Positions 27,520 through 58,575 are shown, numbered from the stretch's first letter. The stretch: 64,000 nucleotides of DNA from Candidatus Nomurabacteria bacterium (GCA_020631975.1 JACKGO010000002.1:7218-71217), one strand, 5' to 3'. Made by a program: numbers and translations. Notes: generated from the sequence alone by a model not told the origin.

Positions 27520-27548
27520 TAATTTACATTACGTATTGAATAGCTAGT

Positions 27549-39744: not shown

Positions 39745-42700
39745 TTATTCCACAATAAAGTACGTAAAGGTGTACGTCTTTCCGGCTTGAGGTGCCTGAT
39801 CTGTATAAATACTAAAGCTGGTGTTGGTGGTTGTAGAGCCGTCGTAATATGCGCCTACTTTGGCACTATCGCGGTTAGCTGGGCTAAATACTACGCGTGG
39901 TTTATTGGTAAAGGCAGTATTAAAGGTAACTTTTGCGAGTTCGTCTGCGGTTGTGTTTGCGCCGGCAACCACTGTAATAGTGCCGGATGTATCGTTACCA
40001 CTAACAGTTACTACGGGGGCTGCGATATTGTTCAGTACGTCTTCTGTGCCAGCTGCTACGCCTGTGCTGACCGTAGGTGTATTACCAGCAGTGATAATTT
40101 TACCGTTTACGGTGATGTTAGCGACGGTGATGTTCTCTACTGTTAGGTTACCAGCTATTACTACATTGTCTGTTACAGTTAGGCTCTTCATGGTTACTGG
40201 GCCGGTGACATTTAGGCTACCTACTATATTTAGGCTACCTTGTATTGTGCCACCGTTAGTGAGGTCTAGAATGTTGTTAGAGGCCGGTTGAATGGAGTTT
40301 TCAAGCGCGGTAAGGCGATTTTGAGCATCGGTTATCATGGCTTGTTGTTCTTGAACGGCGCCGATGAGAGGTGTGACGAGGCCTGCGGTATCTAGTAGCA
40401 GATAACCTTGACTATCTACGCTCACAAATTCAGGTAAAACCGTTTGGACATTCTGAGCTATTAGCCCGAGTTTTTGGGTACCAGGATCTGACTTGTATCT
40501 ATAGTAAGTGGGCTGTAGTTGCATTATCTTAGCAAGATTGCCTGTTGCTGAACTATCTATATATTTCAGCCTTTCATCTGATGTGCATGATAGAGAACCA
40601 TGTATAGTACAATTTGAAGTTTGGGTATAAAGACTCAGGCTCATTCGTTGACCTGGGTCACCAATTGTCGCCCATTGAGCACCGGGGTTTAGAGCTAGTG
40701 CCGAAGTAGAATTATTTACTCCTATATATGCAGCATTAGTACCAGTATTAGTCCAAAGTTGCATGTAATTATAGTTACCATACACTCTAAAACTATTGTT
40801 TTGATATGTTCGAACAACATTACTTTCGATAGAGTATATGCCCGCACCATAATTCTCGTTATACCATCCTGTCTGTCCATAAGACCTAAACCAGTTAGAT
40901 GCATAGACAGCACTATCAGCTGTAATGCTACCATTACTCCAAAAGCCACCATTATATATATTGGCATACTTGTTAGTAATTGACGCGCCATCTTGCCAAA
41001 TCTGCTCGCGACTATGAGTTATGACTGCAGCTGGTGAATACTGTACGAGTACATCACTATTTACATTGTTACCATCATTCTGGACCCCAATGATCAATGC
41101 GCCGTTTTCTGTACTATCACCCCAGTAGTTATAAGCATTATTATCGTTATCCCAATGTATATACCCATAATCAGAACCACCCGTATCTACCCCACCAAAC
41201 AATTCTTCTCTTCCAAAAAAGATATCCTTACCAGCATTGATACCCACACCAGTACTTGTAACGGCAAACGAGCGTTTTTGTGCTTGTATTTTGTCTACAT
41301 AAGCAGTTATCGCACCAGCGGCATCACCCTGGCCTGTACTAATAACTATTCTGCCTTTTAACTTGCCGGCAGGTATTTGGAATGTACCTCTACATTCTGC
41401 CCAGCTCGTTGTGAGGTTGCAATCTTTTACTGTGTATATGGCTGCTCCTGGGACAAAGAACATAGGGTCATTTGCACTATCGTTCAAAAGTATCCCAATG
41501 GAAAGATTTGGTACAACACCACCGGCGGTACCTGAGTAAAAACCATAGGCGGACACTTCTATAAATTCGCCGGGTGATACATCAAATGAATCTAACATAT
41601 CATACCGCTGGTAACCACCCCCACCCGGGTTTGCCGCAAAAGTGGCAGCCGCAGAATATGAACCAACATTGCCATAATGAGTGGCACTTCTGGTAGATGT
41701 TGAGCGGAGTTGCCAAAATGTACCATAGCCAATTGGTACATCATTTGCTGCGTTCCATTGTTCTAGATCACCGTTAACTAAAATGCTTTGTGCGTAGGAA
41801 TACGCATTAGCACCATTAACCTTTAGTAGGTCTGTTGTATTTACCATGCTCAACGCCCCGCCTGACGAAGTCCATACAGCAGCGCTAATATTTTGCCAAG
41901 AGCCGGCATTATTTTTTACCTGCAAGGTACCAGCATTGTCTCTTATGCCATAACCAGCTGAACCACTGGTTGAGCCGAAGTTGAGATAGCTGTTTGAGCT
42001 AGCAAGTATGTTGCCATTTACTGTTAATTTAGCTGCAGGATTAGTGTCGCCAATACCGACATTGCCATCGCTAAGAATTGTCAGTTTGTTACTCCAGCCG
42101 CTTGCTCCTCTAGTAAAGAATGAAAGGTTTGCGTATGCACTGCCATGATTGATATTCTGTGCAGCAATACCCGCCGCTATACTGCCATTGCCGTGAAACG
42201 CTAGCTCTGTCCAGTTATTTGTAGTTCCATCACTGTTCCTGAGAGCCATTTGAGCATTGCTACTAAATGCTCCGGTAGATGTATTGGCCTTTGAAACATC
42301 CAACAAATATTGTGGGTTAGTTCGGCCGATTCCCAAATTACCAGCTGTGGTTAATGTCATGTGTGCCGTTGCTGCACCGTTGGCATGGAAGGCTAAATTA
42401 TACCCGTTGTTCGTGACAAGTCTTGCTGTGGTATCGCCGGTGCTTGCGGCTACACCCAAAATGTTGGTTCCACCTGCTTGCCACATTTGGTTAAAGTCGC
42501 CTGCGGCATTTGTAAAGGTTGCGGGCGCTGTGTAGTTAACAGTTAGCCTATAGCTTGACCCCGTTGTACCGACCGAGACATTACCGTTGTTACCCATAAA
42601 CATAGTGCTTGTAGAAGAATTATTGCGAATGTTGAAGCCACTTGCACCATAGTTAAGATACATTACATTGTCGCTCCACCTTGGCCACAAGAACTGTTCA

Positions 42701-45700
42701 TATGTTCCACCAGAATTTTTAGCCTGCAAGGTAGCTGTGTTTTCAAACTGCAATACACCACCAGTGCCAGTAACAACAAGATTGTTCGCTTTACCTTCAC
42801 CGCTTATCCAATAATTGCTTGAACTTTGTGCACTACTGTTTTGGTTCTGAATATAGTTACCACTTCCACTAGCCGGAGCAAAAGCTGTTGAGTCTAGACC
42901 GTCTAGCAAATCGGCATTAAGGTTTGTAACTTTTGTTGTAGACGATACGGTAAATGGCGAAGTACCAGTTGCAATAGTAGAGGTGAACCTAGTACCTTGT
43001 ATTACGCCAGCAGCCGTTAGGTTGCCAGAACCATCTAAGACTAAGCCGTCTAGTTGGGTGCCCGATGAGTTAACTGTTGAAAAGCGCATTGAATTATCTA
43101 ACAAGCGAATCATTGAGCCACCGCGGTTGGTGTTAATGCGCGGGAAGCCAGTGGTGTTGTACATATTGTTAGCTATACCAACACCAGTGTATGTGTAGCC
43201 AGGTTCGCTTGCCCACAGCATAAGATCTGCTGTGTTAGTTGCACCACCATCACCAATAGAATGAAGCAATAGTTGCGTATCACCATGACCACCATATACT
43301 TCTAACTTGCGGCTAGGTGTAGCAGTGCCTATGCCTACTCTGTTGAGAGCTGCATCTACAAATAGTGTGTTTGTGTCAAAGGTGGCGTTACCAGTTACTG
43401 ATAGAGTTGATGTGATGCTGGTAGCACCATTCAACGTATTAGCACCGGTGCCAGTGCTAAAAGTTCCGCTACCGGTTTGGCTAAAGTTAGAGTTATTAGC
43501 TACAGTTATACCACCGTTGAAGGTACCAAGGCCCGTGAAGGTGCTGGTGCTGGTTACAGCTAGTGTACCGCTAAATGTTGCAGCACCAGCATTTGTAATA
43601 GTTAGTCTTGCGGTATTTGCTGTCTCTAATACAAGTGCTTGTGAATCGTTAGTGCCCAGAGTTGCCGTAGTACCAAAGCTGTTACCGTTTTGGATAAAAG
43701 GTCCGCTTTGGGAAGGCGTATTTATTAAAGTGTAATTAATAGGTGTAGTTTCGTCTGTTACTAATGCCCCACTCCATGCATCACCCCAGCCATCTATACT
43801 GCTATGGCCTGCTATTATTTCTTCTATAACCACCTTGGGGTACTGCCAAACTGTAGAAGTATTGCCTAGCATGATAACTGGATTTGTACCGTTACTAGCT
43901 AGTCTAATTGTAGTGAATGGTGCACTACCGCGTATTTCGGCCGAAGCATTTACCCAGCTTGGAGTAGTGTAAGCATATCCGCTAACTATTGCCTCCCACG
44001 CACCATAGCCCGAATAATCATAGCCCTTAATAGTGAATCTTAACATAGTAGCAGTAAAGCCTTTTGGCGCGGTAAGCACTATAGTACCAGTTTGGTTTGA
44101 AGCAGAAATGTTATACGTATAAACATTTTTATATGTTCTTACGTTGTTTTGAGACCTACTAGTGACGCCGTTTACATCAAGTGCTGTGTTCGGCGTAGTC
44201 GTACCTATACCTACATTACCGTTGTTTTGCACGGTTAGTTTAGTTGTGTCTGCAGTTTGCAGATATAGATTACCTGTACCGCGTGAGTTAAGTATTAGAT
44301 TTTGGTTATTTGTTGAACGAATTTCGTTTTGTAGTGGCGTACTGTCGTATGATGATCCTAGTAGCAAGCCTCTAGCCCTTATATTGGTAGCACCACTAGC
44401 AGTAGTTAGTACCGAAAGGTTACCAGCATCTGTCATGATTTGACCACTAATAACATTTAGGCTATCCCCGCTGGCTATGTCTAGGCGGTTAGCTGCACCA
44501 CGGTATAAGTTAACGTCTGAGCCAAACCGTAGTGGGTACGTAGCGCTGGAATCAGATAATGTTGTTAGGCCTCTTGCTGTAGTGGTGTCGGTGGCTGTAT
44601 CACCCAGTGTGGTGTTGCCGGCTACTGTTAAAATACCGGCTGCAGCTAGTGTGCCGGAAGCATTACTAACAGTAATGGTGCCTGTGCTTGTAGTTAGTAG
44701 GCTATAGTTATTCTGAGAAGAAAGTAGTGCGCTTGGTTGTATACGGAATGCATTGTTTGTACCTGCTCCAGTGATACCAAATAAAGTATTGCCAGTTATG
44801 TCTAGGCTAGCTATTGTAACTTCACTGCCACCAGCAGGCGCAGTAAAAGAAGTGGCGCTGAAGTAGTTCATACTAGAACCTTCAGAAGTTACGGTTACTT
44901 CGCTTGACTGACAAGCTGCCACAGCCTGAGCATCTATATAAGTTACATTAGGTGCACCGCTGTCATTAACCATACGAACATTGCTCCAACAACTTGTGCC
45001 ATTTTGACTGAGCATAGTTATTGAGCCAGATGTTCCCCAGTCTTTGACAACATTCATGACAATTTGGTTAGGAACTCCACTACCGCCACCATTAGACAGT
45101 ACTATTTTTGCTGCACCTCTACCTGCCCCACCACCCGCGCTAGTCGCTATACGGTACCAGTTACCAGCAACGAGAGTACCACCTTGTGTTGTAGTAGTTT
45201 TGGTAACGGCACCAATATCTGAAGCAACTTGTGCAGTCGTACGATATTTAAGAACACCACTGTCATTGGTGACAAAACCAGTAAAGGTTGCGTCATCTGC
45301 AGTTTGGTTTATAGTCGTAGCTCCACTAGTAACGGTTAAGCTGCCAGTAAAGTTAGCTGATGATGATATTGTTTGACCATTAATGAGACCAGAGCTTATG
45401 GTACCTATATTAACTAAGTTGCCACTGCTGTCTATACGATTAGTTCCTGCACCTGCACCAGTATTAATGCCTTGTACGCCATTCACAGATGAGTTAAACA
45501 GAAAGCCAGAGCCACTGGTTTTAGAGAATGAACCGTCGCCTAGGCTTATTGTACCTGTGGTGCCGTTACCTACATATACGGCACCGAATCTACCAGTGCC
45601 TGTAATGTTAAGGTTACCAGTTTGGGCTGTTCCTGGTGTACTGCCTTGCAATTGTACATAGCCACTGCCACCTGTAGCCGGCGCAAAGGCGGTAGAGTCA

Positions 45701-48700
45701 AGACCATCTAGCGTTGTTGCATCTACACAGTTGTTAGTTACACCAACGTTAGTAGCAGCCACAGTAATACAGCTACCAGCACCAACTGTAAGGGTAGTAG
45801 AGCCACCAAGTGCAGTGCTACCACCGCCAGTTAGACCATTGCCAGCTGTTACAGTTAGGGCACCGCTGCCAGTTAGATAAGTATTAGCGATGGTATTACC
45901 TTGGTAGGTTACATTTTGGAGGACTCCGGCGTTAGTGAGGCGGGTTGTGTTGTTGGTTAACAATGAGCCTGAAACGATATTTAAGCTGCCATTATAGATT
46001 GTTCCTCCATTGGTACTCACATACAGCTCTTGATATGGTGATGCTTCACCAAAGTCGAGATATAGATCTCCTATCTGAATACCGTTATTAGAAGCGTCTT
46101 CTGTTATGGTTATGCGATACCCTTTTACATACTTCCCCATAGAATTAGAAGCGTAGTAGTAGTTTTTGCTATAGCCCGTGACATTAGTAACTGTTTCCCA
46201 GTTATATGTGATGTTGTCTAGTGACGTATATAGCTCAATTGTGAAGTTAGTTGGTCTCCAGTACCTACTGTTCCACCCGTAAGATACTCCTCCTGTCTGT
46301 GTATTTCTTACAGGAAAATCAACTTGTACTATAGCAGGTGCTACTGCTGACACATCTCCACCTGATGTTGTAGTGGGTGTTGTGTCACCATCAAATAACG
46401 ATGCTAACGATGAAAATAGTCTTACGGCACCAGGCTGTGTAACAGTATAGCCGGGGCGTGATGTAGCATTATAAAGAATATTATATTCACCTGCTCTAAA
46501 ATTCATGGTATTTCCACCAACAGGGCTCGTAGCATTGATAATGTTATTTGCTAAGATGTTGACTGAGCCATCAGACTGTACCCTAAGTCTTTCATTTCCA
46601 CCGGTGCTAAAGCCGAGCGTATCAGCGCCGACTAAATACATACCAGTATTAGTATCACTACTAAAGCTGTAGGATGGGCCACCTACTGCACCATCTGCTG
46701 CTTGGAATAGACCGGCTGTGGTTAGTCTGTTAGTTCCGTTTTGCTGGATGTTACCACTTACTAAGTTAAGGCTATCACCTGTAGCGAGGTCTAGGCGGTT
46801 AGCGGCGCCACGACTGATGGTAACATCTGAGCCTAGGGTAAGGTCAGCGCCTGTCACTGTAAGATCTTGAGCAATGGTGACATTAGCCCCATTTAATGCT
46901 ATTCCACCGCCAGCAGTGTTGTTTATAACAAGGTTGTTTGAACCACCGTATTGGAAGTCTGCAAAGTTAATTGGTGTGCCATTGGCATCTGCTTGTAAGC
47001 GAATATAGTTATTTGAGCTATTAATGCTGTCGTTTTTAAACACCGCCATAGTGCCCCCACCATAGCCATCACCTATTCCATAAACTTGGAAAAAGCCACT
47101 GCCACTACCGTTTTGGAAGATATTGCTACTGCCCGTGAATGCTGAGCCAGTGTCTACAGTTAAACTTCCACCTAGGCGGCCATTGCCACTTATCCAAAAG
47201 TTGCTAGAACTTTGGGCACTTGCATATTGGTTTTGGATATAGTTACCGCTACCTGATGATGAAGCAAATGAGGAACAAGTTATTGTGTCGCCAAGTTGAG
47301 TTATGGCCTGCCCTGCGCTACAAGCACCTGGATAGTTTGTCAGTGCAGTCCAGTCTACTGAGCCTGCTGAACTGACCGTTAAGGCATCGTTTATATATAT
47401 GTCGGTTATGACATTGCCGTTCCATGTTGCGCCAGTAATGGTGCCTGTTGTAGAAACGTCTAAACCCGAACTATCTATGCTAAAGTTACCACCGCCACTA
47501 AACCCGTAAGCGCCACTGGATTGGCTGTAACCAGTGATGCTAGAAAGAGCCCCAGCGGCGCTAAGCCGTTGCGTGCCACCAGTGTATAAGTTGCTTGCAA
47601 TATTTACATACCCAGAACCATTAGGAGTTAGAACAATATTGCCGTTACCAGCGACGGTTTGGATGTTAAGGTTATTTGAACCATCTGTGTAAAGCTTAGA
47701 AACTTGGTTGTTATCTACCAAATTAGTACTAGTAAAGTCACCGCCAACGTAAAGTGGGCCATTATTTATCTTTCTAACACTAACGTGATCAATTAACGTT
47801 GTTTCACCACCTGCTGAGCTGTAGTTAGCTAGGAATAGTACCCGAACATATTTTGTACCCACTGGGAAGTTGGGGTAAGAAGTACCTTCTCCACTGGTTG
47901 TCGCATTTAGTTTATGCCAATTACCGTCGTTTGGAATATTATAGCTAGCTGAAGCGAAGTAGCAATACGTACCACATGGTGCAGTGGTTATTGCCGATTT
48001 TGCTGCATTGTAGGCAATGTAACCAGCGTAGATAACACCTGGAGTAGTGCCTGTAACAGTTTCTTTGACATATGCTTCAAACTGAAGTGTGTCTTTGGTT
48101 GGGTCTACTGGTATATAGTCTTCAGATAATACTGTTGAAGAGTTAACTACTCTTGAAGTGTAATTGCCTGAGTTACCGCCGGTCGTTGTGTCTGTCAAGC
48201 CCGACCAGCCCGCAGTTGTATTAGTTTCAAAATCTCCATTGTAGACTAAGTTGTCGTTATCTAGCGCTAAGTAACCACCTTGTGTAATTTTACCCGTTAC
48301 AGCTAAGTCACCAGTTACCTGAGCCCCAGTAGTAGTGACTCTAAGCCTTTCTGTCCCAGCTACACTAAAGCCAAGATTGCTAGCATCTATACGGTACATG
48401 CCCATATTTGTTGAGCTACTAAAGCTATAGGCTGGCCCACCAACTGCACCATCTGCTGCTTGGAAGAGACCGGCTGTGGTTAGCCTATTAGTACCGTTTT
48501 GTTGGATGTTACCACTTACTAAGTTTAGACTATCTCCTGTAGCAAGGTCGAGGCGGTTGGCTGCGCCACGGTATAGGTCAACATCTGCACCAAAGCGAAG
48601 TGGATAGGTGCTGCTTGAGTCAGATAGTGTTGTTAAGCCTCTGACGGTCGTCGTGTCTGTGTTCGCATCACCCAGAGTGGTGTTGCCGTTTACTTGTAGA

Positions 48701-51642
48701 GTGCTTGCAAGTGTTGTTGCGCCGTTGAGGGTATTGGTACCTGTTCCAGTAGTAAATGTCGTACTACCAGTCTGAGTAAAGTTGCCAGTCGTTGTAATGG
48801 CACCAGATGTGTTTAGGGTTCCAGCAACATTCAACTTGTACGTACTGGTGTCAGTAGAACCAATGGCGGTGTTGCCGGACGAAGTGTTGACGACGAGCTT
48901 GTCAGTATTGACCGTGAAGGTGCCAGCCACACTGAGCGCACCGTTCATCAGACCAGCACCAAGGTTGTCTATGCTAAAGCGGGTAATACCATTAGCTTGG
49001 AGTTCTATGCCAAAGGCATCGTCTGCCCCAATGATGACGTTACTGCCAAAAGTATTACCACCTTGCAGGATGTCACCATTGCCACCAGTACCAGCACAGT
49101 TGCCAGTTGTGAGACAGACCGTACCCGTGGCATTAGGGAATGTGATGGTACGGTTAACGGTTGGATCAGCAATCGCAAAGGTGGTGGTGTAGGCATTGTC
49201 AGTGGCTCCTTGGAAGACCAGTGCATTGGTACCAAGCAGTTGTGAGGTAACGGTTAAGCGGTCTAGGCTGGCGTTGTTACCAATGGTGGTATTGCCTTGG
49301 ACGGTAAGGTCACCTGTGGCGGTAAGGTTGGCAAACTGTACATTGCTGGTGGTGGTGAGGTTCTGGCCCGTGTCGTAGGCGAGTTGGGCATCACCAATAC
49401 TATCTGCGGTAATGCTGAGATTAATGTTTGGACTAGAAGCAGATACCGCTATTTGGCTATTGCCTTGGATGGTGAGCGCACCACCTAAGCCATTTAAGGC
49501 TGTCACGCCACCAGATCCACCAACACTGGCTTGGCTGACCCACGTAAAGCCACCCGTGGTGTTATCGTAGGTGAGGACATAGCCGTTCGTACCAGCACCA
49601 GCTACGTTGGTGCTTTCTAGATCAATTGCTTCTAAGGTACCGTTAGTAACTTCACTGCCCTCTATGGTGGTACCGAGACTGCTGGTGAGGGTGACACTGC
49701 CACCCAATGCCACCGCGCCACCACCTGTTAAGCCAGTGCCAGCCGTCACGGTGACTTGGCCACTACCAGTCAGACGAGCATTGGCCACCGTACCGCTACT
49801 TATGTTGCTACCATTAAGAGCACTTAAGGCTGCACCATTGCCACTGAATGAGGTAGCCGTGACAGCACCGGCGCCAGTCACACGGAAGTTACTAATACCG
49901 TTGGTTTGCCAGTTAACGTAATCGCCCGCGTAACCACTGCTGGCGTTAATACCAATGTAGGTACCGCTGGCACTGCCGGCAGCAATTGCACTACCAAACT
50001 TGAGGAGTGATGAGGTGGCCGACAAGGCGGGCACACCAGTGAAATCTGCAGCGACACCGCCGGTGACACTACTCGTCAGGGTTGCACTGAAGGTCTTGGC
50101 CCCACTGACGGTTTGGGTATTGTTAAGTAACATCACGTTACTGCTAAGACGAGCGTCAGCGACCGTGCCAGAAGCAATGTTACTACCATTTAAGTTGGTT
50201 AGGTTAATACCACTCACAGCTGGTAATTGGCTGCTGGCATTAAGCTGCACCAGTTGGCTGGCACCGTTAAAGCTATTGCCTTGTAAGGTAACGTTACTAC
50301 TAAGACGGGCGTCAGCGACCGTGCCACTGGTAACTTGGTTACCGTTAATAGCAATGGAGCTAGCGCCGGCAGCGGTTAAGCGGCCATCACTATCTACCGT
50401 AAAGGTTGCTACACTGGATGCACTGCCATAGCTACCACTCGTCACAGTCGTACTGGCGAGTTCAGACGCATTCACTGCTCCAGCAGCAATCTCACTAGAA
50501 CCAACACTATCTACTGCTAAGGAACTTGCTGTTAAGCTGTCATTGGCAATTTGGGCATCACCAATACTATCTGCGGTAATGCTGAGATTAATGTTTGGAC
50601 TAGAAGCAGATACCGCTATTTGGCTATTGCCTTGGATGGTGAGCGCACCACCTAAGCCATTTAAGGCTGTCACGCCACCAGATCCACCAACACTGGCTTG
50701 GCTGACCCACGTAAAGCCACCCGTGGTGTTATCGTAGGTGAGGACATAGCCGTTCGTACCAGCACCAGCTACGTTGGTGCTTTCTAGATCAATTGCTTCT
50801 AAGGTACCGTTAGTAACTTCACTGCCCTCTATGGTGGTACCGAGACTGCTGGTGAGGGTGACACTGCCACCCAATGCCACCGCGCCACCACCTGTTAAGC
50901 CAGTGCCAGCCGTCACGGTGACTTGGCCACTACCAGTCAGACGAGCATTGGCCACCGTACCGCTACTTATGTTGCTACCATTAAGAGCACTTAAGGCTGC
51001 ACCATTGCCACTGAATGAGGTAGCCGTGACAGCACCGGCGCCAGTCACACGGAAGTTACTAATACCGTTGGTTTGCCAGTTAACGTAATCGCCCGCGTAA
51101 CCACTGCTGGCGTTAATACCAATGTAGGTACCGCTGGCACTGCCGGCAGCAATTGCACTACCAAACTTGAGGAGTGATGAGGTGGCCGACAAGGCGGGCA
51201 CACCAGTGAAATCTGCAGCGACACCGCCGGTGACACTACTCGTCAGGGTTGCACTGAAGGTCTTGGCCCCACTGACGGTTTGGGTATTGTTAAGTAACAT
51301 CACGTTACTGCTAAGACGAGCGTCAGCGACCGTGCCAGAAGCAATGTTACTACCATTTAAGTTGGTTAGGTTAATACCACTCACAGCTGGTAATTGGCTG
51401 CTGGCATTAAGCTGCACCAGTTGGCTGGCACCGTTAAAGCTATTGCCTTGTAAGGTAACGTTACTACTAAGACGGGCGTCAGCGACCGTGCCACTGGTAA
51501 CTTGGTTACCGTTAATAGCAATGGAGCTAGCGCCGGCAGCGGTTAAGCGGCCATCACTATCTACCGTAAAGGTTGCTACACTGGATGCACTGCCATAGCT
51601 ACCACTCGTCACAGTCGTACTGGCGAGTTCAGACGCATTCAC
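39745..51642 (-). CDS. Giant tail-fibre-like surface protein (largest intact ORF of locus C)
   Basis: 3965 aa. Contents: 389-aa tandem repeats; three RGAANRLD(L/I)A(T/S)GDSLN(L/V)(V/I)SG.I blocks; two CBM-like jelly-roll segments (YNGDFETNTTAGWSG..., VNGDLEQWNAAN...); a peptidase-S74-type intramolecular chaperone motif CTSDERLKY...LGLIAQNVQTVLPEFV + coiled coil; and a ~170-aa C-terminal module shared with loci B and D. The Met start lies inside a repeat, so the true start is probably at 54860. Confidence 0.75.
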   Translation of the reverse strand: MNASELASTTVTSGSYGSASSVATFTVDSDGRLTAAGASSIAINGNQVTSGTVADARLSSNVTLQGNSFNGASQLVQLNASSQLPAVSGINLTNLNGSNIASGTVADARLSSNVMLLNNTQTVSGAKTFSATLTSSVTGGVAADFTGVPALSATSSLLKFGSAIAAGSASGTYIGINASSGYAGDYVNWQTNGISNFRVTGAGAVTATSFSGNGAALSALNGSNISSGTVANARLTGSGQVTVTAGTGLTGGGAVALGGSVTLTSSLGTTIEGSEVTNGTLEAIDLESTNVAGAGTNGYVLTYDNTTGGFTWVSQASVGGSGGVTALNGLGGALTIQGNSQIAVSASSPNINLSITADSIGDAQIANDSLTASSLAVDSVGSSEIAAGAVNASELASTTVTSGSYGSASSVATFTVDSDGRLTAAGASSIAINGNQVTSGTVADARLSSNVTLQGNSFNGASQLVQLNASSQLPAVSGINLTNLNGSNIASGTVADARLSSNVMLLNNTQTVSGAKTFSATLTSSVTGGVAADFTGVPALSATSSLLKFGSAIAAGSASGTYIGINASSGYAGDYVNWQTNGISNFRVTGAGAVTATSFSGNGAALSALNGSNISSGTVANARLTGSGQVTVTAGTGLTGGGAVALGGSVTLTSSLGTTIEGSEVTNGTLEAIDLESTNVAGAGTNGYVLTYDNTTGGFTWVSQASVGGSGGVTALNGLGGALTIQGNSQIAVSASSPNINLSITADSIGDAQLAYDTGQNLTTTSNVQFANLTATGDLTVQGNTTIGNNASLDRLTVTSQLLGTNALVFQGATDNAYTTTFAIADPTVNRTITFPNATGTVCLTTGNCAGTGGNGDILQGGNTFGSNVIIGADDAFGIELQANGITRFSIDNLGAGLMNGALSVAGTFTVNTDKLVVNTSSGNTAIGSTDTSTYKLNVAGTLNTSGAITTTGNFTQTGSTTFTTGTGTNTLNGATTLASTLQVNGNTTLGDANTDTTTVRGLTTLSDSSSTYPLRFGADVDLYRGAANRLDLATGDSLNLVSGNIQQNGTNRLTTAGLFQAADGAVGGPAYSFSSSTNMGMYRIDASNLGFSVAGTERLRVTTTGAQVTGDLAVTGKITQGGYLALDNDNLVYNGDFETNTTAGWSGLTDTTTGGNSGNYTSRVVNSSTVLSEDYIPVDPTKDTLQFEAYVKETVTGTTPGVIYAGYIAYNAAKSAITTAPCGTYCYFASASYNIPNDGNWHKLNATTSGEGTSYPNFPVGTKYVRVLFLANYSSAGGETTLIDHVSVRKINNGPLYVGGDFTSTNLVDNNQVSKLYTDGSNNLNIQTVAGNGNIVLTPNGSGYVNIASNLYTGGTQRLSAAGALSSITGYSQSSGAYGFSGGGNFSIDSSGLDVSTTGTITGATWNGNVITDIYINDALTVSSAGSVDWTALTNYPGACSAGQAITQLGDTITCSSFASSSGSGNYIQNQYASAQSSSNFWISGNGRLGGSLTVDTGSAFTGSSNIFQNGSGSGFFQVYGIGDGYGGGTMAVFKNDSINSSNNYIRLQADANGTPINFADFQYGGSNNLVINNTAGGGIALNGANVTIAQDLTVTGADLTLGSDVTISRGAANRLDLATGDSLNLVSGNIQQNGTNRLTTAGLFQAADGAVGGPSYSFSSDTNTGMYLVGADTLGFSTGGNERLRVQSDGSVNILANNIINATSPVGGNTMNFRAGEYNILYNATSRPGYTVTQPGAVRLFSSLASLFDGDTTPTTTSGGDVSAVAPAIVQVDFPVRNTQTGGVSYGWNSRYWRPTNFTIELYTSLDNITYNWETVTNVTGYSKNYYYASNSMGKYVKGYRITITEDASNNGIQIGDLYLDFGEASPYQELYVSTNGGTIYNGSLNIVSGSLLTNNTTRLTNAGVLQNVTYQGNTIANTYLTGSGALTVTAGNGLTGGGSTALGGSTTLTVGAGSCITVAATNVGVTNNCVDATTLDGLDSTAFAPATGGSGYVQLQGSTPGTAQTGNLNITGTGRFGAVYVGNGTTGTISLGDGSFSKTSGSGFLFNSSVNGVQGINTGAGAGTNRIDSSGNLVNIGTISSGLINGQTISSSANFTGSLTVTSGATTINQTADDATFTGFVTNDSGVLKYRTTAQVASDIGAVTKTTTTQGGTLVAGNWYRIATSAGGGAGRGAAKIVLSNGGGSGVPNQIVMNVVKDWGTSGSITMLSQNGTSCWSNVRMVNDSGAPNVTYIDAQAVAACQSSEVTVTSEGSSMNYFSATSFTAPAGGSEVTIASLDITGNTLFGITGAGTNNAFRIQPSALLSSQNNYSLLTTSTGTITVSNASGTLAAAGILTVAGNTTLGDTATDTTTARGLTTLSDSSATYPLRFGSDVNLYRGAANRLDIASGDSLNVISGQIMTDAGNLSVLTTASGATNIRARGLLLGSSYDSTPLQNEIRSTNNQNLILNSRGTGNLYLQTADTTKLTVQNNGNVGIGTTTPNTALDVNGVTSRSQNNVRTYKNVYTYNISASNQTGTIVLTAPKGFTATMLRFTIKGYDYSGYGAWEAIVSGYAYTTPSWVNASAEIRGSAPFTTIRLASNGTNPVIMLGNTSTVWQYPKVVIEEIIAGHSSIDGWGDAWSGALVTDETTPINYTLINTPSQSGPFIQNGNSFGTTATLGTNDSQALVLETANTARLTITNAGAATFSGTLAVTSTSTFTGLGTFNGGITVANNSNFSQTGSGTFSTGTGANTLNGATSITSTLSVTGNATFDTNTLFVDAALNRVGIGTATPSRKLEVYGGHGDTQLLLHSIGDGGATNTADLMLWASEPGYTYTGVGIANNMYNTTGFPRINTNRGGSMIRLLDNSMRFSTVNSSGTQLDGLVLDGSGNLTAAGVIQGTRFTSTIATGTSPFTVSSTTKVTNLNADLLDGLDSTAFAPASGSGNYIQNQNSSAQSSSNYWISGEGKANNLVVTGTGGVLQFENTATLQAKNSGGTYEQFLWPRWSDNVMYLNYGASGFNIRNNSSTSTMFMGNNGNVSVGTTGSSYRLTVNYTAPATFTNAAGDFNQMWQAGGTNILGVAASTGDTTARLVTNNGYNLAFHANGAATAHMTLTTAGNLGIGRTNPQYLLDVSKANTSTGAFSSNAQMALRNSDGTTNNWTELAFHGNGSIAAGIAAQNINHGSAYANLSFFTRGASGWSNKLTILSDGNVGIGDTNPAAKLTVNGNILASSNSYLNFGSTSGSAGYGIRDNAGTLQVKNNAGSWQNISAAVWTSSGGALSMVNTTDLLKVNGANAYSYAQSILVNGDLEQWNAANDVPIGYGTFWQLRSTSTRSATHYGNVGSYSAAATFAANPGGGGYQRYDMLDSFDVSPGEFIEVSAYGFYSGTAGGVVPNLSIGILLNDSANDPMFFVPGAAIYTVKDCNLTTSWAECRGTFQIPAGKLKGRIVISTGQGDAAGAITAYVDKIQAQKRSFAVTSTGVGINAGKDIFFGREELFGGVDTGGSDYGYIHWDNDNNAYNYWGDSTENGALIIGVQNDGNNVNSDVLVQYSPAAVITHSREQIWQDGASITNKYANIYNGGFWSNGSITADSAVYASNWFRSYGQTGWYNENYGAGIYSIESNVVRTYQNNSFRVYGNYNYMQLWTNTGTNAAYIGVNNSTSALALNPGAQWATIGDPGQRMSLSLYTQTSNCTIHGSLSCTSDERLKYIDSSATGNLAKIMQLQPTYYRYKSDPGTQKLGLIAQNVQTVLPEFVSVDSQGYLLLDTAGLVTPLIGAVQEQQAMITDAQNRLTALENSIQPASNNILDLTNGGTIQGSLNIVGSLNVTGPVTMKSLTVTDNVVIAGNLTVENITVANITVNGKIITAGNTPTVSTGVAAGTEDVLNNIAAPVVTVSGNDTSGTITVVAGANTTADELAKVTFNTAFTNKPRVVFSPANRDSAKVGAYYDGSTTTNTSFSIYTDQAPQAGKTYTFTYFIVE

Positions 51643-53224
51643 TGCTCCAGCAGCAATCTCACTAGAACCAACACTATCTACTGCTAAGGAACTTGCTGTT
51701 AAGCTGTCATTGGCAATTTGGGCATCACCAATACTATCTGCGGTAATGCTGAGATTAATGTTTGACTAGAAGCAGATACCGCTATTTGGCTATTGCCTTG
51801 GATGGTGAGCGCACCACCTAAGCCATTTAAGGCTGTCACGCCACCAGATCCACCAACACTGGCTTGGCTGACCCACGTAAAGCCACCCGTGGTGTTATCG
51901 TAGGTGAGGACATAGCCGTTCGTACCAGCACCAGCTACGTTGGTGCTTTCTAGATCAATTGCTTCTAAGGTACCGTTAGTAACTTCACTGCCCTCTATGG
52001 TGGTACCGAGACTGCTGGTGAGGGTGACACTGCCACCCAATGCCACCGCGCCACCACCTGTTAAGCCAGTGCCAGCCGTCACGGTGACTTGGCCACTACC
52101 AGTCAGACGAGCATTGGCCACCGTACCGCTACTTATGTTGCTACCATTAAGAGCACTTAAGGCTGCACCATTGCCACTGAATGAGGTAGCCGTGACAGCA
52201 CCGGCGCCAGTCACACGGAAGTTACTAATACCGTTGGTTTGCCAGTTAACGTAATCGCCCGCGTAACCACTGCTGGCGTTAATACCAATGTAGGTACCGC
52301 TGGCACTGCCGGCAGCAATTGCACTACCAAACTTGAGGAGTGATGAGGTGGCCGACAAGGCGGGCACACCAGTGAAATCTGCAGCGACACCGCCGGTGAC
52401 ACTACTCGTCAGGGTTGCACTGAAGGTCTTGGCCCCACTGACGGTTTGGGTATTGTTAAGTAACATCACGTTACTGCTAAGACGAGCGTCAGCGACCGTG
52501 CCAGAAGCAATGTTACTACCATTTAAGTTGGTTAGGTTAATACCACTCACAGCTGGTAATTGGCTGCTGGCATTAAGCTGCACCAGTTGGCTGGCACCGT
52601 TAAAGCTATTGCCTTGTAAGGTAACGTTACTACTAAGACGGGCGTCAGCGACCGTGCCACTGGTAACTTGGTTACCGTTAATAGCAATGGAGCTAGAGCC
52701 GGCAGCGGTTAAGCGGCCATCACTATCTACCGTAGCACATGGATGCACTATAGCTACCACTCGTCACAGTCGTACTGGCGAGTTCAGACGCATTCACTGC
52801 TCCAGCAGCAATCTCACTAGAACCAACACTAAAGGAACTTGCTGTTAAGCTGTCATTGGCAATTTGGGCATCACCAATACTATCTGCGGTAATGCTGAGA
52901 TTAATGTTTGGACTAGAAGCAGATACCGCTATTTGGCTATTGCCTTGGATGGTGAGCGCACCACCTAAGCCATTTAAGGCTGTCACGCCACCAGATCCAC
53001 CAACACTGGCTTGGCTGACCCACGTAAAGCCACCCGTGGTGTTTATCGTAGGTGAGGACATAGCCGTTCGTACCAGCACCAGCTACGTTGGTGCTTTCTA
53101 GATCAATTGCTTCTAAGGTACCGTTAGTAACTTCACTGCCCTATGGTGGTACCGAGACTGCTGGTGAGGGTGACACTGCCACCCAATGCCACCGCGCCAC
53201 CACCTGTTAAGCCAGTGCCAGCCG
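49385..53224 (-). repeat. Tandem repeat, 1167-bp unit x ~3.3 copies, inside locus C
   Basis: Identical ORF-track translations recur at +1167/+1166 bp in several frames (49607/50774/51940; 50000/51167/52333; 49878/51045/52211). Copies 1 and 2 look identical. Copy 3 and partial copy 4 carry the indels listed for locus C. Confidence 0.9.
51699..52760 (-). CDS. Locus C repeat-copy ORF fragment
   Basis: 353 aa. Apart from its first ~10 and last ~15 residues it is identical to one 389-aa repeat unit of the giant ORF. It is bounded by indels. Confidence 0.45.
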   Translation of the reverse strand: MVAIVHPCATVDSDGRLTAAGSSSIAINGNQVTSGTVADARLSSNVTLQGNSFNGASQLVQLNASSQLPAVSGINLTNLNGSNIASGTVADARLSSNVMLLNNTQTVSGAKTFSATLTSSVTGGVAADFTGVPALSATSSLLKFGSAIAAGSASGTYIGINASSGYAGDYVNWQTNGISNFRVTGAGAVTATSFSGNGAALSALNGSNISSGTVANARLTGSGQVTVTAGTGLTGGGAVALGGSVTLTSSLGTTIEGSEVTNGTLEAIDLESTNVAGAGTNGYVLTYDNTTGGFTWVSQASVGGSGGVTALNGLGGALTIQGNSQIAVSASSQTLISALPQIVLVMPKLPMTA

Positions 53225-54860
53225 TAATGCTAAGGCTGGCATTTGTCAGACCTACGGTTAAGTTCCCATTCGCCCCACCATCTGTGATGGAGATGTTAGA
53301 ACCAGCCGTCAGGACTCGTTCGTTGGTGAGGCTGCCGTCTAGACCAAGTGTGAGGTAGCTAGCGGCAATTGGTGCACTACCACTGCCACCTGTTCCACAG
53401 GTACTACTAAAGCTGAGGTTACCAGCTGCATCACCGACAATACAGTCACCACTACCACCATAGCCACTCGGGAGCTTAAAGGTCAGGTTACTAGCAATGG
53501 CAGCTGACTGCAGCGTGGTAGTGTTGCTAGAGCCATCGTTGAGCACGAGACTACCTTGTTGAGTCGTTGTACCAACGCTGATGGTTGCACCCTGGACGGT
53601 GAGGGTACCACTAAAGGTTGGGGAGTTGGCGACATTGATGGTCAGGGTGCCATTGGCACCTGTGTCAGCCACGCTAATGTTAGTGCCAGCGGTTAAGACT
53701 CGTTCACCCGTTAAGGTACCGTCTAGGGCGAGGGTGAGGTAGCTGGCACCAACTGGTGCGCCACCACCGCCTGAGCCACAAGTGGCACTGAAAGATAGAC
53801 CACCTGCTCCGTTGCCAACAATACAGTCACCACTACCGCCATAGGCATTTGGGAGGGTGAAGGTCAGATTGCCGGCAGTGGCAGCAGCTTGAATGGTGGT
53901 GGTGTTGGTACTGCCATCGCTTAAGGTGAGGACACCTGCTTGGGAGGTGGTGCCAATAGACACACTGGCACCCTGAAAGACACCAGTGCCCGCCACGGTG
54001 AGGTTACCATTGGCGGCCAGTAGCAGTCGGTCATTGCCACTGGCTTGGAACTGCAGTAAGCTACCTGCTCCGGTTTGGTTGATGCGCAGTGCTGTGTTGG
54101 CTGAATTGACAGTTTGGGTGGCACTAGGTGCCAGTTGGGCCAGTTGGTCAGCCGTAAAGGAGCCCGTGGCTCCTTTGAGGGTTTGGGCTTGTTGGGCAGC
54201 AAAGGCGTATGGTACAGCCGTTACCTTGATGCGAGGGTTCATCTCACCATTCCATGGTGGGGTGGCGGTTTGGGTGGGACCGCCGATGTTCATGCTGAGC
54301 CAGAGTTCTTGGCTCCAGTCTATGGTGCCAGGAAAGGCTGTACCACCAGCGGTGGTATCTGCCAGGCTGACGGTCAGGTAGCCGTTCTTGACCTGGACAC
54401 GGTAGTCATTGCCAGGTGCGGCGCCATTGGTGTCGTAGCGAGTGTCTGTCCAGAGTAGTGTGCCACCAGAGGCTGCATCGTACAGTTTAAACTGGACGTT
54501 GTAGTAGCCATCAGGCACCAGGGCGCCAGTGTTGGTGAGGATACGGGCTTGGAAGTTAATGGTGGTGTTAGCGGCTGCTTTAGCTACGGGTGTGAAGGCG
54601 GGCGTATATAGATATATATACAAGGAGAGGATGGTGACAAGAGCAAGAGCAAGCAAAGCAAAGCGGGAAAGCTTTGTTACGAGAGAAGACCGAGCTGCTG
54701 GATACAAGTTGTTGGATGATGGAGGAAGCACAGCATGCAAAAGAAGCACCTCGTGGATCATCTGCTTTGTTGTCTTGTGGGTAGGTGCGGCCTTACCACG
54801 ACGACGGAGGAGATGACGGGTGCGTGAAAGTATGTGACTAGTGCGGGATAGTCTGTTCAC
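53133..54860 (-). CDS. Locus C N-terminal ORF (distinct basic leader + TM, conserved N-domain)
   Basis: 575 aa with leader MNRLSRTSHILSRTRHLLRRRGK... and TM FALLALALVTILSLYIYLY. From AANTTINFQ onward it is near-identical to locus A. It ends at ...SSLGTTIGQ, where the repeats read SSLGTTIEGSEV. Confidence 0.7.
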   Translation of the reverse strand: MNRLSRTSHILSRTRHLLRRRGKAAPTHKTTKQMIHEVLLLHAVLPPSSNNLYPAARSSLVTKLSRFALLALALVTILSLYIYLYTPAFTPVAKAAANTTINFQARILTNTGALVPDGYYNVQFKLYDAASGGTLLWTDTRYDTNGAAPGNDYRVQVKNGYLTVSLADTTAGGTAFPGTIDWSQELWLSMNIGGPTQTATPPWNGEMNPRIKVTAVPYAFAAQQAQTLKGATGSFTADQLAQLAPSATQTVNSANTALRINQTGAGSLLQFQASGNDRLLLAANGNLTVAGTGVFQGASVSIGTTSQAGVLTLSDGSTNTTTIQAAATAGNLTFTLPNAYGGSGDCIVGNGAGGLSFSATCGSGGGGAPVGASYLTLALDGTLTGERVLTAGTNISVADTGANGTLTINVANSPTFSGTLTVQGATISVGTTTQQGSLVLNDGSSNTTTLQSAAIASNLTFKLPSGYGGSGDCIVGDAAGNLSFSSTCGTGGSGSAPIAASYLTLGLDGSLTNERVLTAGSNISITDGGANGNLTVGLTNASLSITAGTGLTGGGAVALGGSVTLTSSLGTTIGQ

Positions 54861-55240: not shown

Positions 55241-57384
55241 TTACTCTATTACAAAGTATGAATACTTGTATGTTTTGCTGGTTTGCGTGGTGTTGGGTGT
55301 CCCAAAAGTAAAACCATTAGCAGTTGGTGTTGCAAATACTTGTATACTGGCACTGTCTATGTCTTGGCCAGTAATTACTACCTTGGGGGTGTTACCGAAT
55401 GCTTGATTAAACGTAACCTCTGCAAGCGTTCCAGCCGTAGTATTAGCACCAGCAACTATAGTTATGGTACCGGCGGTGTCGTTGCCCTCTATGGTGGTTA
55501 CTTGTGGAGCTGGTATGTTGTTATTGGTATCTTCTACTCCAGCTGCAGTGCCTACAGTAGCTGTTGGGTGTTGCCAGCTGTTATTATGTGGCCGTTGACT
55601 GTTAGGTTAGCTACTGTGACATTTTGGACTGTTAGGTTGCCGGCTATGACAACATCGTCTGTTACGGTTAGGCTACTCATGGTTACTGGGCCAGTGACAT
55701 TTAGGTTGCCTACTACATTGAGGTTACCTTGTATGGTGCCACCGTTGGTAAGATCTAGAATGTTGTTAGAGGCTGGTTGGATAGAGTTTTCTAGGGCGGC
55801 TAAGCGATCTTGAGCGTCAGTTATTTGAGTTTGCTGTTCGCCTATGGCTGCTATGGCATAAATAGGTAGTAAGTCGTAGCGCAGCTTTAGGTAGCCGTTT
55901 TCGTCAGTAGATACTAGTTCAGGTGCTACCTGTAATACTTGCTGAGCTATAAGGCCATATTGTATTTCGTTACCCGTAGCACCAGTATAGTAGTTTTACC
56001 AAGTTGGTTGAACTTATAGGTCACTGCTTGTAAGTTAGCAACTTTATTTAAGATACCACTCATACTAGTAACTTCTTCTTTAAAGCGTTCATCAGATGAA
56101 CATGTACCAGTTAATGCGGCACCATCAAACCGTTTTATACAACCATTGGTACCGCTGGTGCCCACTTTAACATCACCATAAACCCTTAGCTTGTCGGTGC
56201 CGTCTTGTACGCCACCAATACCTATACAGCCAGTACCTACGGTAGTACCAGTACCAAAGCCACCGCCACCAAAGATGACATTGCCTATTGATAGTTGGTT
56301 GGAACCTGTTGTGCTTTGGGCATCTATGTCATAGCCAATTATGATGTTTGTGTCGCCAGCAGTTAAATTATCTCCAGCCTGGTAGCCAATTGCGATATTA
56401 CTTGAACCTGTACTATTAATTAGACTACTTCTCCCGACAGCAGTATTGCCCCAGCCGGTGGTATTGTAATATAAACTATTGCGACCTATAGCAACATTTT
56501 CACTGCCATTAGTGTTAGAGTATAGGCTACTATCACCGACAGCAGTGTTACTAGAATTTTGATTGAAAAATAAGCTGTAAGTACCAACAGCGACATTAGC
56601 ACTTCCCCATTGATTATAGTATAGACTATACAAACCGATTGAAGCATTAGCGGTGCCATTGCTGTTATTGCGTTGACTATTAGAGCCGATGGCTGTGTTT
56701 GATGTGCCACTAGTAACAACACTTAGGCTATTAGCACCTATAGCCGTGTTATTATCGCCTGTTGTGTTTAATCTTAAAGAGTTTTGACCTAAACCAGTAT
56801 TATTGCTGCTTCTACTGGTCGCTCTAAGCTCTAATGCAACATTGTTCGAGCTGTCTTTAATTGCCAGTACACTTGTGTTAAAGCTAACTTCTCTAATACT
56901 GATTATGGTTATACTACCATTATATAAAATACTATTAGGATTGATATAAAAACCTGATGTATTTGTTGTCGTAATAAAAGCGGTCAGAAACAGTTGTATT
57001 GCTATTCATAGTTGCGCTAGATAAACCTAACTGAAAAGAAGCAGTTTGGGCATTAACTACAGTAGAATAGGTAATAGCATTGGAAGTTAATGGTGGTGTT
57101 GGCGGCTGCTAACGCGTTGGGTGTGAAGGCGGGCGTATATAGATATACAGCGGTAAGGAGGCTGAGAGTGAGGGTGAACAAAAGAGAGCTGGCAGTAATG
57201 GTGCGATGGAATATACGGGTTGAGTGGGAATTGGTACTACCAGGATGTAGTACGTATGTACATAATTTTGTAAGTCTATAAAAACAAAAAACACAGGCCC
57301 GCTTATGTGGGATCTGTGCCTAAGATATCTGTTGGTAGGTGCGACGTTGCGGCCTTTTAGCCAATAACGCCATTTGCGCAGCAT
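55241..57384 (-). pseudogene. Fibre locus D: small chimeric paralog (shared 5' cassette + Hep_Hag/YadA-head-like repeats + S74 chaperone motif + shared C-terminal module), frameshifted
   Basis: The leader ORF 57109..57384 matches locus B until an A5 (vs A6) tract at 57280-57284 shifts the frame. The body ORF 55947..56633 (…NTAVGDSSLYSNTNGSENVAIGRNSL…CSSDERFKEE…) breaks at ~55985. The remaining C-terminal module is readable to F-V-I-E-stop at 55241, with another shift near 55570. Confidence 0.6.
55947..56633 (-). CDS. Locus D body ORF fragment
   Basis: 228 aa with repeated N(T/S)A(V/I)G-type head repeats, then GTCSSDERFKEEVTSMSGILNKVANLQAVTYKFN (S74-type motif). Confidence 0.5.
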   Translation of the reverse strand: MYSLYYNQWGSANVAVGTYSLFFNQNSSNTAVGDSSLYSNTNGSENVAIGRNSLYYNTTGWGNTAVGRSSLINSTGSSNIAIGYQAGDNLTAGDTNIIIGYDIDAQSTTGSNQLSIGNVIFGGGGFGTGTTVGTGCIGIGGVQDGTDKLRVYGDVKVGTSGTNGCIKRFDGAALTGTCSSDERFKEEVTSMSGILNKVANLQAVTYKFNQLGKTTILVLRVTKYNMAL

Positions 57385-57665
57385 GTTGGTTTTTTGGTTT
57401 TTTGTTTTTTTAGTGTTTGTGTGTGTATACCGCTGTTTTGGTTTACAGATTTAAGTATATATGATTAGCCGCAGCAAGCAAGGCACTTTGTATACACAAA
57501 AATAGAACATGTGAATACTACAAAAATGTGTAAATAATGTGTACAATATGTAGTTATATATACATCGTTACAGATATAGCATGCATAGATTCATGAAATT
57601 ATTGCTAAATATATTGTATGTTAATTTACAACATAATAATTATACTGTGCAGAGTTTTCCACAAG
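57385..57665 (-). promoter_or_regulatory. Conserved upstream module of fibre locus D
   Basis: T6-GG-T6-G-T7 tracts (57390-57411), TTGTATACACAAAAATAGAACA, CATCGTTACAG and TTTTCCACAAG (57655-57665). Confidence 0.45.
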
Positions 57666-57835
57666 TATAATAGATAAAAGCTTTCCTGTTCGGAGGGCTT
57701 TTATAAATTACGGCACCGTGACAAGACCCCACAAAAATTATTTTGCGGGGAACCCCGCTATTTATCATAATATAGGGAAAATAGCACGCTGTAACAAAAG
57801 ATAAAAGCCCTCCTATTCGGAGGGCTTTTATATAA

Positions 57836-57949: not shown

Positions 57950-58321
57950 ATATTAGTCCCGCTCTATACTAGACTGCAGGGACTTATATCGACGTCCATC
58001 AACGATAGATATTGTTACAAAAAGCATTATGACAAACACAAATAGCTAGTTAATTACTGCCAATTTCTCGTACGATGCAACAAAACGATATTACATCATA
58101 CGAGATGCATAAAAAGTCGATGGATCTATTAGTACGCTTTGGCTGAATGTATTGCTACACGTACACCTTGCGCCTATCAACCTGATCGTCTTTCAGGGAT
58201 CTCTATAGGGAAATGCAATCTTGGGATTAGTTTCGCGCTTAATATGCTTTCAGCGCTTATCTAGACCGCACTTAGCTACCCAGCTATGCCTGTAGGTCAG
58301 ACAACTGGTACACCAGCGGTG

Positions 58322-58354
<33 letters not shown>

Positions 58355-58390
58355 TTCCCTCACATTTCCTATTGTCCACATCGGATATAA

Positions 58391-58424
<34 letters not shown>

Positions 58425-58452
58425 ACGTACCTCTTTAACCGGCGAACAGCCG

Positions 58453-58483
<31 letters not shown>

Positions 58484-58542
58484 AGATGAGCCGACATCGA
58501 GGTGCCAAACAGCGCCGTCTATGTGAACTATTGGGCGCTATA

Positions 58543-58575
<33 letters not shown>

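Follow-up and report, generated by a model that had tools for sequence, protein, structure and literature searches.

The window analysed here is a 64,000-nt stretch (JACKGO010000002.1:7218-71217) of a MAG (GCA_020631975.1) that is labelled Nomurabacteria, yet is Saccharimonadales-like. The host is a Saccharibacteria-type (CPR) tiny symbiotic bacterium and not a phage, a point that the original prediction overlooked. A giant gene of ~15 kb runs along the minus strand from 54860 to 39745 and carries within it a head-to-tail array of 1167-bp units. GenBank covers this gene with locus tags H6795_02385-02400 and presents one ~5,045-aa fibre gene as at least three annotated proteins (H6795_02385, _02390, and _02400) plus an unannotated 118-aa ORF. 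In the direction of the gene, and all on the minus strand, these pieces are an N-terminal ORF (53133..54860; H6795_02400, 542 aa counted from an internal ATG), which terminates at a stop made by a -2 indel in the partial copy of the array (c4); the 118-aa ORF found by ORF scan (52723..53079), which extends from the frameshift in c4 to that in the next copy, c3; a 353-aa ORF fragment within c3 and c2 (51699..52760; H6795_02390, 349 aa), with frameshifts at both bounds; and a main ORF of 3,965 aa (39745..51642; MCB9817369.1, ‘tail fiber domain-containing protein’), which contains the remaining 2.3 units, the mosaic shaft, and the tip. Exact-match searches with the truncated products (575 aa and 542 aa) turned up neither in any other assembly.

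The fibre gene sits in an island of paralogs. Two of them share its N-domain (1315-2721, 96%, and 35499-36856, 84%) and a third is a C-terminal/S74 paralog (27877-30777). Immediately upstream lies a paralog with its own S74 domain (55244..56972, minus strand), which is read in three different frames and is broken by two 1-nt deletions in short homopolymers, an A-run at ~55990 and a C-run at ~55567. The other genes examined near the fibre gene include an rRNA operon, IF-2, fmt/def, IleRS, RNR, a Y1 transposase, and a beta-lactamase-like gene.

The encoded protein begins at its N-terminus with a hydrophobic anchor, continues with a beta-sandwich domain and a mosaic shaft of tail-fibre-like character, and closes with a Peptidase_S74 chaperone at the C-terminus. 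The N-terminal ORF comprises the hydrophobic anchor/signal FALLALALVTILSLYIYLY, the beta-sandwich domain, and two ~128-aa shaft sub-repeats. The beta-sandwich is predicted with a pLDDT of >90 across about 120 residues, and a comparison of this model with the PDB gave no specific match. In sequence, the N-domain appears distantly related to that of the Bdellovibrio MAT fibres: it scores 18.9-21.1 bits (E 1e-3 to 2e-4) against the NCBIfam model Bdello_MAT_N (NF053851), below the 60-bit cut-off, and the same model is matched by 17 of 50 N-domain homologs at E <= 0.01, with a best value of 2.6e-8. The N-domain also occurs at 27 chromosomal loci of Saccharibacteria, where the ORFs that carry it range from 800 to >3,500 aa. 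At the other end of the protein, the Peptidase_S74 intramolecular chaperone/autoprocessing domain (CTSDERLKYIDS; 40423..40581, minus strand, aa 3688-3740 of the main ORF) scores 44.1 bits against a cut-off of 22 (PF13884), and this region also matches a PHROG long-tail-fibre family.

The array lies directly after the N-terminal domain, at 49371-53225 on the minus strand, as defined by the concordant results of a repeat search, self-BLASTN, and a MAFFT alignment of the copies. It spans 3855 bp, which corresponds to about 3.3 copies (3.30-3.32), with start-to-start spacings of 1167, 1166, and 1147 bp. The original prediction had placed 3.3 copies at 49385-53224, so that the array itself stands and its limits are slightly adjusted. 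As had also been proposed, the unit is in frame, since the period equals 3 x 389 codons, and it forms a shaft segment right behind the N-domain; the unit peptide quoted at that time is matched exactly in the translated sequence. The minus-strand orientation of gene and array had been missed, and the copies formerly numbered 3 and 4 are therefore those proximal to the N-terminus. In the copy alignment these are the partial c4 (52851..53225, 375 bp) and the damaged c3 (51704..52850, 1146-1147 bp), followed towards the C-terminus by the perfect c2 (50538..51703) and by c1 (49371..50537). In gene order the array reads as unit' 1-1167 three times and then unit' 1-376, and its peptide begins with AGTGLTGGGAVALGGS and ends in ...ITADSIGDAQ. 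The claimed identity of the two C-terminus-proximal copies holds except for four substitutions within the first 14 nt of c1 (49375-49383), which are simply the edge of the array. Perfect identity over >1 kb cannot have arisen by chance. One block of 85 nt (53141-53225 and its counterparts) is shared by all four copies at 100% identity and lies, in gene order, upstream of the first lesion. Tandem Repeats Finder did not report the array because the longest period it handles is 500. A tandem repeat is in itself a familiar phenomenon and an ordinary kind of feature. An AlphaFold monomer model of the 389-aa unit was uninformative (pLDDT 50), and a ~55-aa sub-module of the unit, VTSGSYGSAS-VATFTVDSDGRLT, is common to the unit and to viral contigs in IMG/VR, with up to 78% identity.

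All six indel events, and with them every indel that breaks the reading frame, fall in c3 and c4, in agreement with the original prediction. The lesions of c3 are a -1 (about 51763), a substitution (52697), a complex -8 (52735-52739), a -3 (52749), and a -9 (52831), and those of c4 are a +1 T (53042) and a -2 CT (53140). There are 6-8 indels vs a single substitution within 1.4 kb of the 15-kb gene. When the perfect unit is swapped in for the damaged copies (+22 nt), a 15,138-nt ORF of 5,045 aa with a single terminal stop is obtained; therefore, the indels alone break the giant gene.

Comparison with relatives bears out the earlier suggestion that the copy number is labile, on an evolutionary scale. 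In the ortholog of a related species (L044), the unit is exactly 389 aa long and 76% identical to the window unit at the amino acid level, with a dS of 1.89 and a dN/dS of 0.11. There the N-domain reads in frame into an array of at least 1.43 units (the assembly is from short reads, in which copies may be collapsed) in a different phase, with a within-array identity of 99.4%. For L061 (GCA_041402185.1), a strain with ~99% identity, the count is ~1.9 units, taken from sequence that is noisy across the fibre gene. As the N-domain of this strain is only ~83% identical to that of the window, its array junction may reflect paralog exchange instead of simple unit loss. Junction phases differ among the genomes, and identity within an array is 99.4-100% (100% for c1 vs c2) compared with 76% between genomes. 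On this sequence evidence, the sharing of a diverged 389-aa unit with the related species and the ~1.9 units in the close strain indicate that the array undergoes concerted evolution and changes length between strains.

The array itself is shown by the sequence. We consider it probable, although by no means certain, that it arose when a shaft module of 389 aa was duplicated in tandem within one cell-surface fibre gene of ~5,045 aa. With the same degree of confidence, the six indels most probably stem from long-read consensus errors that persisted in a multi-copy repeat and are not signs of pseudogenisation, because they are indel-dominated, clustered, and located beside perfect copies, and because repair restores the frame exactly; this signature had not been recognized before. 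The lack of any indel in 21 kb of the window compared with independent short-read contigs and the open frame of the remaining 11.9 kb of the gene also fit a technical origin. A distinctly less probable reading, which nevertheless carries some weight, is that the array and the indels are both real and that the fibre gene was very recently inactivated, leaving a young pseudogene in four ORFs. GenBank does list the pieces as separate proteins, and three of the six events (the -3, the complex -8, and the -9) are unlike classic homopolymer errors. Moreover, the frameshifts of the adjacent paralog, together with an in-frame TAA in its ortholog in the short-read assembly of the related species, indicate that genuine pseudogenes exist in the island, and 21 kb of the window aligned to independent short-read contigs without any indel, so the assembly is generally accurate. 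However, six indels vs one substitution is the reverse of normal bacterial decay, every lesion lies within the same 1.4 kb beside two perfect copies, the flanking ORFs of 11.9 kb and 1.7 kb are completely open, and the unit is under purifying selection. Technical noise in the related long-read MAG is likewise obvious and limited to the fibre gene, where identity is 90-94% with dozens of gaps, as opposed to 99.35% and no gaps in housekeeping DNA.

It is unlikely that the array, while real, owes its copy number of 3.3 and/or the identity of c1 and c2 in part to the assembler or to polishing. Polishing with multi-mapping reads does drive copies toward the majority sequence. The array is crossed by no independent assembly of the strain; short-read contigs end at or before it, as would be expected if they break there, and one of them (L007) would end ~68 nt inside if colinear. 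Additionally, in a collection of 15 billion proteins the unit found no close match, and the cluster of the main ORF held no unit-bearing member besides the pieces of this MAG. Nevertheless, ordinary long reads easily span 3.9 kb, and two other genomes independently show near-identical copies repeated at a period of 1167 bp, which makes high identity a property of the lineage. A recombinational ON/OFF switch, in which the frameshifted N-proximal copies represent OFF and an unequal crossover at the 85-nt block gives an in-frame gene of 1.3 or 2.3 units, is very improbable: it needs the indels to be real, it would work in one direction only, and no variants are in evidence, even though the block is perfect in all four copies ahead of the first lesion and deletion of whole units keeps the frame. 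Least probable of all is a tail-fibre gene of an integrated prophage. The GenBank product name, the S74 and PHROG matches, and the occurrence of the sub-module in viral contigs would fit such an origin, but no phage-structural match was found among the window genes examined, the neighbours are the rRNA operon, translation and other genes listed above, the protein begins with a membrane anchor/signal, and its N-domain is common to several paralogs here and to the Saccharibacteria chromosomal loci.

Returning to the favoured reading of an intact fibre gene with a real array, we infer a trimeric fibre for host attachment, a recombination mechanism behind the array, and a technical origin of the indels. 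The anchor/signal and the conserved beta-sandwich would form the cell-proximal end, from which the long mosaic shaft of tail-fibre-like sub-modules would extend, and the Peptidase_S74 chaperone would direct the folding of the trimer and afterwards remove itself by self-cleavage. Unequal homologous recombination or gene conversion between units may keep the copies essentially identical, and the same recombination may gain or lose units, so that shaft length would vary between strains. If length is scaled roughly from the long tail fibre of T4, each unit would add ~20 nm of fibre. Short-read polishing would have failed on c3 and c4, because reads from the repeat map best onto the already perfect copies, and the true gene would be intact. 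The split GenBank annotation is probably due to a perfect kb-scale repeat that escaped polishing, and the locus would offer a concrete case of long repeats corrupting MAG annotation. It also forms part of an island of tail-fibre-like, putatively surface-exposed fibres whose N-domain appears to be a distant relative of Bdellovibrio MAT fibres. In PMC11623550, host recognition by ultrasmall episymbionts is described as largely unknown beyond type IV pili. A family of mosaic fibres that vary in length may therefore reasonably be considered for a role in host attachment. A bolder proposal, which we regard as unlikely, is that Saccharibacteria, which are obligate episymbionts, own a MAT/tail-fibre-like adhesin branch whose fibre length is set in each strain by a recombining array of 389-aa cassettes, and that the damaged N-proximal copies are a real, recombination-resolvable OFF state. 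If true, the cassette array would adjust the reach of the fibre across the host envelope in each strain.

Several known systems resemble this locus in part. The C-terminal S74 domain with its S-D-E-R-x-K motif and a composition rich in Gly, Thr, Ser, and Asn are shared with phage long tail fibres and tailspikes (K1F endosialidase, T5 pb1; PF13884), whereas the window gene is chromosomal and cellular, its product bears a membrane anchor, and virion genes are absent from the neighbours examined. Gram-positive surface proteins (alpha C/Rib, Esp/Bap, SasG, Ebh, and others) contain in-frame, near-identical repeats of hundreds of bp to >1 kb, which vary in copy number between strains through recombination, serve to form a stalk or to set length, and cause trouble in assembly. 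Those repeats are independently folding Ig-like/Rib domains of monomeric, sortase-anchored proteins; in contrast, the unit found here combines sub-modules of tail-fibre-like type and belongs to a fibre that is presumably trimeric and matured by S74. The mosaic adhesive trimer (MAT) proteins of Bdellovibrio bacteriovorus are, according to PMC10769870, chimeric fibre proteins of an S74 subfamily, and in the passages of that paper considered here no perfect tandem array on the kb scale is mentioned. The window protein differs from them further in its host phylum (CPR/Saccharibacteria), its hydrophobic N-terminal anchor, and its ~5-fold greater length (5,045 aa vs ~1,030 aa for the MAT protein Bd2133). 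The two systems have in common several paralogs per genome, in which the N-terminal domain is conserved and the distal parts are variable and mosaic, a shaft akin to that of phage tail fibres, a C-terminal autoproteolytic S74 chaperone, and an organism that lives by attachment to other bacteria.

The giant minus-strand fibre gene (54860 to 39745) contains a tandem array of a 1167-bp unit, which repeat search, self-BLASTN and MAFFT alignment of the copies together place at 49371-53225, with start-to-start spacings of 1167, 1166 and 1147 bp and 3.30 copies. This agrees with the original prediction of 3.3 copies at 49385-53224, and the peptide quoted there for a unit of 389 codons, the length found here, was recovered exactly in a three-frame translation. 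All copies lie on the minus strand. The first two in window order, c1 (49371-50537) and c2 (50538-51703), had been called identical and are so in the MAFFT alignment apart from four substitutions confined to the first 14 nt of c1, which mark the array edge. The N-terminus-proximal copies are damaged: c3 (51704-52850) carries a -1, one substitution, a complex -8, a -3 and a -9, and the partial c4 (52851-53225) carries a +1 and a -2. Tandem Repeats Finder did not report the array solely because its maximum period was 500.

Two relatives place this array in an evolutionary frame. The 7.1-kb contig L044 comes from a related species, has an N-domain of ~78% nucleotide identity and is syntenic with the S74 (intramolecular chaperone) paralog upstream of the giant gene. 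Its N-domain continues without a change of frame into a unit of exactly 389 aa, 76% identical to that of the window at the amino acid level and present in 1.43 copies with a period of 1167 bp and 99.4% identity between copies; the entry and exit points of its array are unlike those of the window. Between the two species the unit has diverged with a dS of 1.89 and a dN/dS of 0.11, whereas copies within one genome show a dS of about 0. Taken together, the shared period, the near-saturated divergence between species and the near-identity of copies in one genome indicate that the array is under concerted evolution, presumably by unequal recombination or gene conversion. The second relative, L061, is a 617-kb contig of a closely related strain (GCA_041402185.1) whose housekeeping DNA is 99.35% identical to the window without gaps. 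Its orthologous gene reads, in gene order, unit positions 501-1167, 1-1157 and 1-376, or about 1.9 units against 3.32 in the window. Comparison of the two assemblies thus shows array length to vary between strains, as expected from the lability of copy number proposed originally. On lability that proposal was largely right, but it left out the strand and the organism, and that the indels are probably artefacts. No short-read contig of this species spans the array; if colinear, the longest of them (L007) would reach ~68 nt into it.

In the window, the giant gene is listed as four minus-strand open reading frames (53133-54860, 52723-53079, 51699-52760 and 39745-51642), and three-frame translation of the array region shows the same peptide passing from frame to frame across the indels. 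Replacement of the damaged copies by a perfect unit (+22 nt) gave a 15,138-nt ORF with one terminal stop, encoding 5,045 aa of which residues 546-1837 form the array; the indels are therefore the sole lesions in the gene. The 3,965-aa ORF is exactly GenBank MCB9817369.1, a "tail fiber domain-containing protein" on a MAG contig of 137,678 bp, and the 349-aa and 542-aa pieces are H6795_02390 and H6795_02400. Exact-product look-up found no other assembly with the truncated N-terminal products of 575 and 542 aa, nor any match to the exact products of P0121 and P0122; these two were considered as a second MAG and rejected, both being paralogs on the same contig as the giant gene.

We consider it probable that the frameshifting indels of c3 and c4 are errors of technical origin. 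The alternative, a recent inactivation of the giant gene, would have had to produce six to eight indel events against a single substitution, confined to 1.4 kb of a 15-kb gene directly adjoining two perfect copies, with the frame restored exactly on repair and the remaining 11.9-kb ORF fully open. Moreover, ~21 kb elsewhere in the window contain zero indels relative to independent short-read contigs, so wherever reads map to one place only, the assembly has been polished. L061 is only 90-94% identical across the giant gene, with dozens of gaps between clean flanks, noise that cannot have a biological cause at 99% ANI. A known polishing effect would give exactly the pattern of c3 and c4: repeat-derived reads map preferentially to the copies without errors, so that the others stay unpolished.

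Genuine inactivation nevertheless draws some support from the -3, -8 and -9 events, which are not homopolymer errors, and from the upstream S74 paralog (55244-56972, minus strand), which is split over three frames by two 1-nt homopolymer deletions, one in an A-run (~55990) and the other in a C-run (~55567). The ortholog of this paralog at L044 1-2100 has an in-frame TAA in place of the Glu of an S-D-E-R-F-K motif and, as this is a short-read assembly, real decay does occur among these fibre genes; in both genomes the upstream paralog is perhaps a true pseudogene. For the giant gene itself, we regard recent inactivation as unlikely and favor technical error.

Paralogous fibre genes surround the giant gene at 1315-2962, 27877-30777, 32689-33758, 34501-37377 and 55244-57669. 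They have in common the N-domain (84-96% nucleotide identity), 5′ leader regions or C-terminal parts: N-domain paralogs lie at 1315-2721 (96% identical to that of the giant gene) and 35499-36856 (84%), C-terminal/S74 paralogs at 27877-30777 and 55244-56972, and similar leaders at 57080-57669, 36787-37377 and 2654-3149. The locus is a fibre-gene island, and a prophage reading of the giant gene was rejected on the context of those genes that were examined. Identity between the giant gene and the paralog at 1343-2962 stops 17 nt inside the array start, and L010, a short-read contig of another strain, breaks ~5 nt before it, at a point equivalent to 53230. Such endpoints suggest that the AGTGLTGGG module serves as a recombination junction. 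Downstream of this truncated paralog are dispersed direct repeats (1-180 and 937-1116, 98%; 18-484 and 32040-32506, 84%). When L061 13037-16988 was compared with window 24973-28275 and 55431-56298, the C-terminal end of its giant gene resembled the upstream paralog of the window and joined directly to window ~28275; ~11 kb (~28-39 kb, with several fibre paralogs) are therefore absent or rearranged there.

The window also encodes a bacterial rRNA operon, IF-2, IleRS and RNR. All relatives found, including the near-identical ones and every N-domain homolog, are Saccharibacteria or Saccharimonadales, and the GenBank label "Candidatus Nomurabacteria bacterium" is therefore probably a taxonomic mislabel. 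The 23S rRNA gene (58108-62041, minus strand) exceeds the Rfam model by ~1 kb and contains a 169-aa LAGLIDADG_1 homing-endonuclease ORF (59105-59614, minus strand; E 5e-28), pointing to an rRNA intron of the kind common in CPR bacteria. Directly downstream of the giant gene, a Y1 (IS200/IS605-type) transposase (205 aa) and a Beta-lactamase2-family gene (37408-39033, minus strand) form a pair kept in many short-read assemblies. A 495-aa ORF without a Pfam match (19746-21233, minus strand), between IF-2 and a DUF5663 gene, is present in the window and in three relatives' contigs (L001, L005 and L006), missing from L002 and L003, and replaced by a 541-aa ORF in L004, a distribution that we read as a strain-level insertion/deletion polymorphism.

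The giant-gene protein begins with a hydrophobic anchor or signal, read directly from the sequence, followed by ~120 residues modeled as a β-sandwich (pLDDT >90) whose structural neighbors in Foldseek searches of PDB and BFVD are only generic Ig/FN3-like β-sandwiches. This N-domain matches NCBIfam Bdello_MAT_N, the model for the N-domain of Bdellovibrio mosaic adhesive trimer (MAT) fibres (PMC10769870), weakly (19-21 bits; cut-off 60). Because 17 of 50 N-domain homologs match it at E ≤ 0.01 (best 2.6e-8), profile similarity suggests a distant homology between the saccharibacterial and MAT N-domains. A Peptidase_S74 domain (44 bits), an intramolecular chaperone, lies at the C-terminus, as does a PHROG long-tail-fibre match. 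The unit itself had no match in Pfam, NCBIfam, PHROGs or PDB sequence searches, nor a close one in a protein search of a database that lists cluster representatives only, the giant gene's being a C-terminal fragment. A single unit was modeled by AlphaFold2 at pLDDT 50. Viral contigs share a ~55-aa sub-module of the unit at identities of up to 78%; a search of IMG/VR for an exact 40-mer of the array found none. In other Saccharibacteria MAGs, the N-domain heads ORFs of 800 to >3,500 aa at 27 loci, and the genome-contig scan found no near-perfect kilobase array among these relatives, all distant (≤63% identity). One Saccharimonadales contig, L035 (13112-16605), encodes a 3,273-aa N-domain ORF with diverged tandem repeats (periods of ~1218 bp at 74% identity and ~810 bp), so the family also includes older shaft duplications that have not been homogenised. 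We found no description of this fibre family in Saccharibacteria in the literature and no paper citing the assemblies.

The giant gene would encode a trimeric fibre, either membrane-anchored or secreted, that matures through S74 self-cleavage and in which the number of 389-aa cassettes may set shaft length and recombination between identical cassettes may change that number. The T4 long tail fibre measures ~145 nm for ~2,900 aa, and rough scaling from it would make the whole fibre ~250 nm long, with ~20 nm contributed by each unit. The analogy with MAT fibres makes contact between this episymbiont and its bacterial host a likely role. Long identical intragenic repeats in giant surface proteins are a well-known class, to which this array belongs, and MAT-like fibres in Saccharibacteria provide a moderately interesting setting for it.
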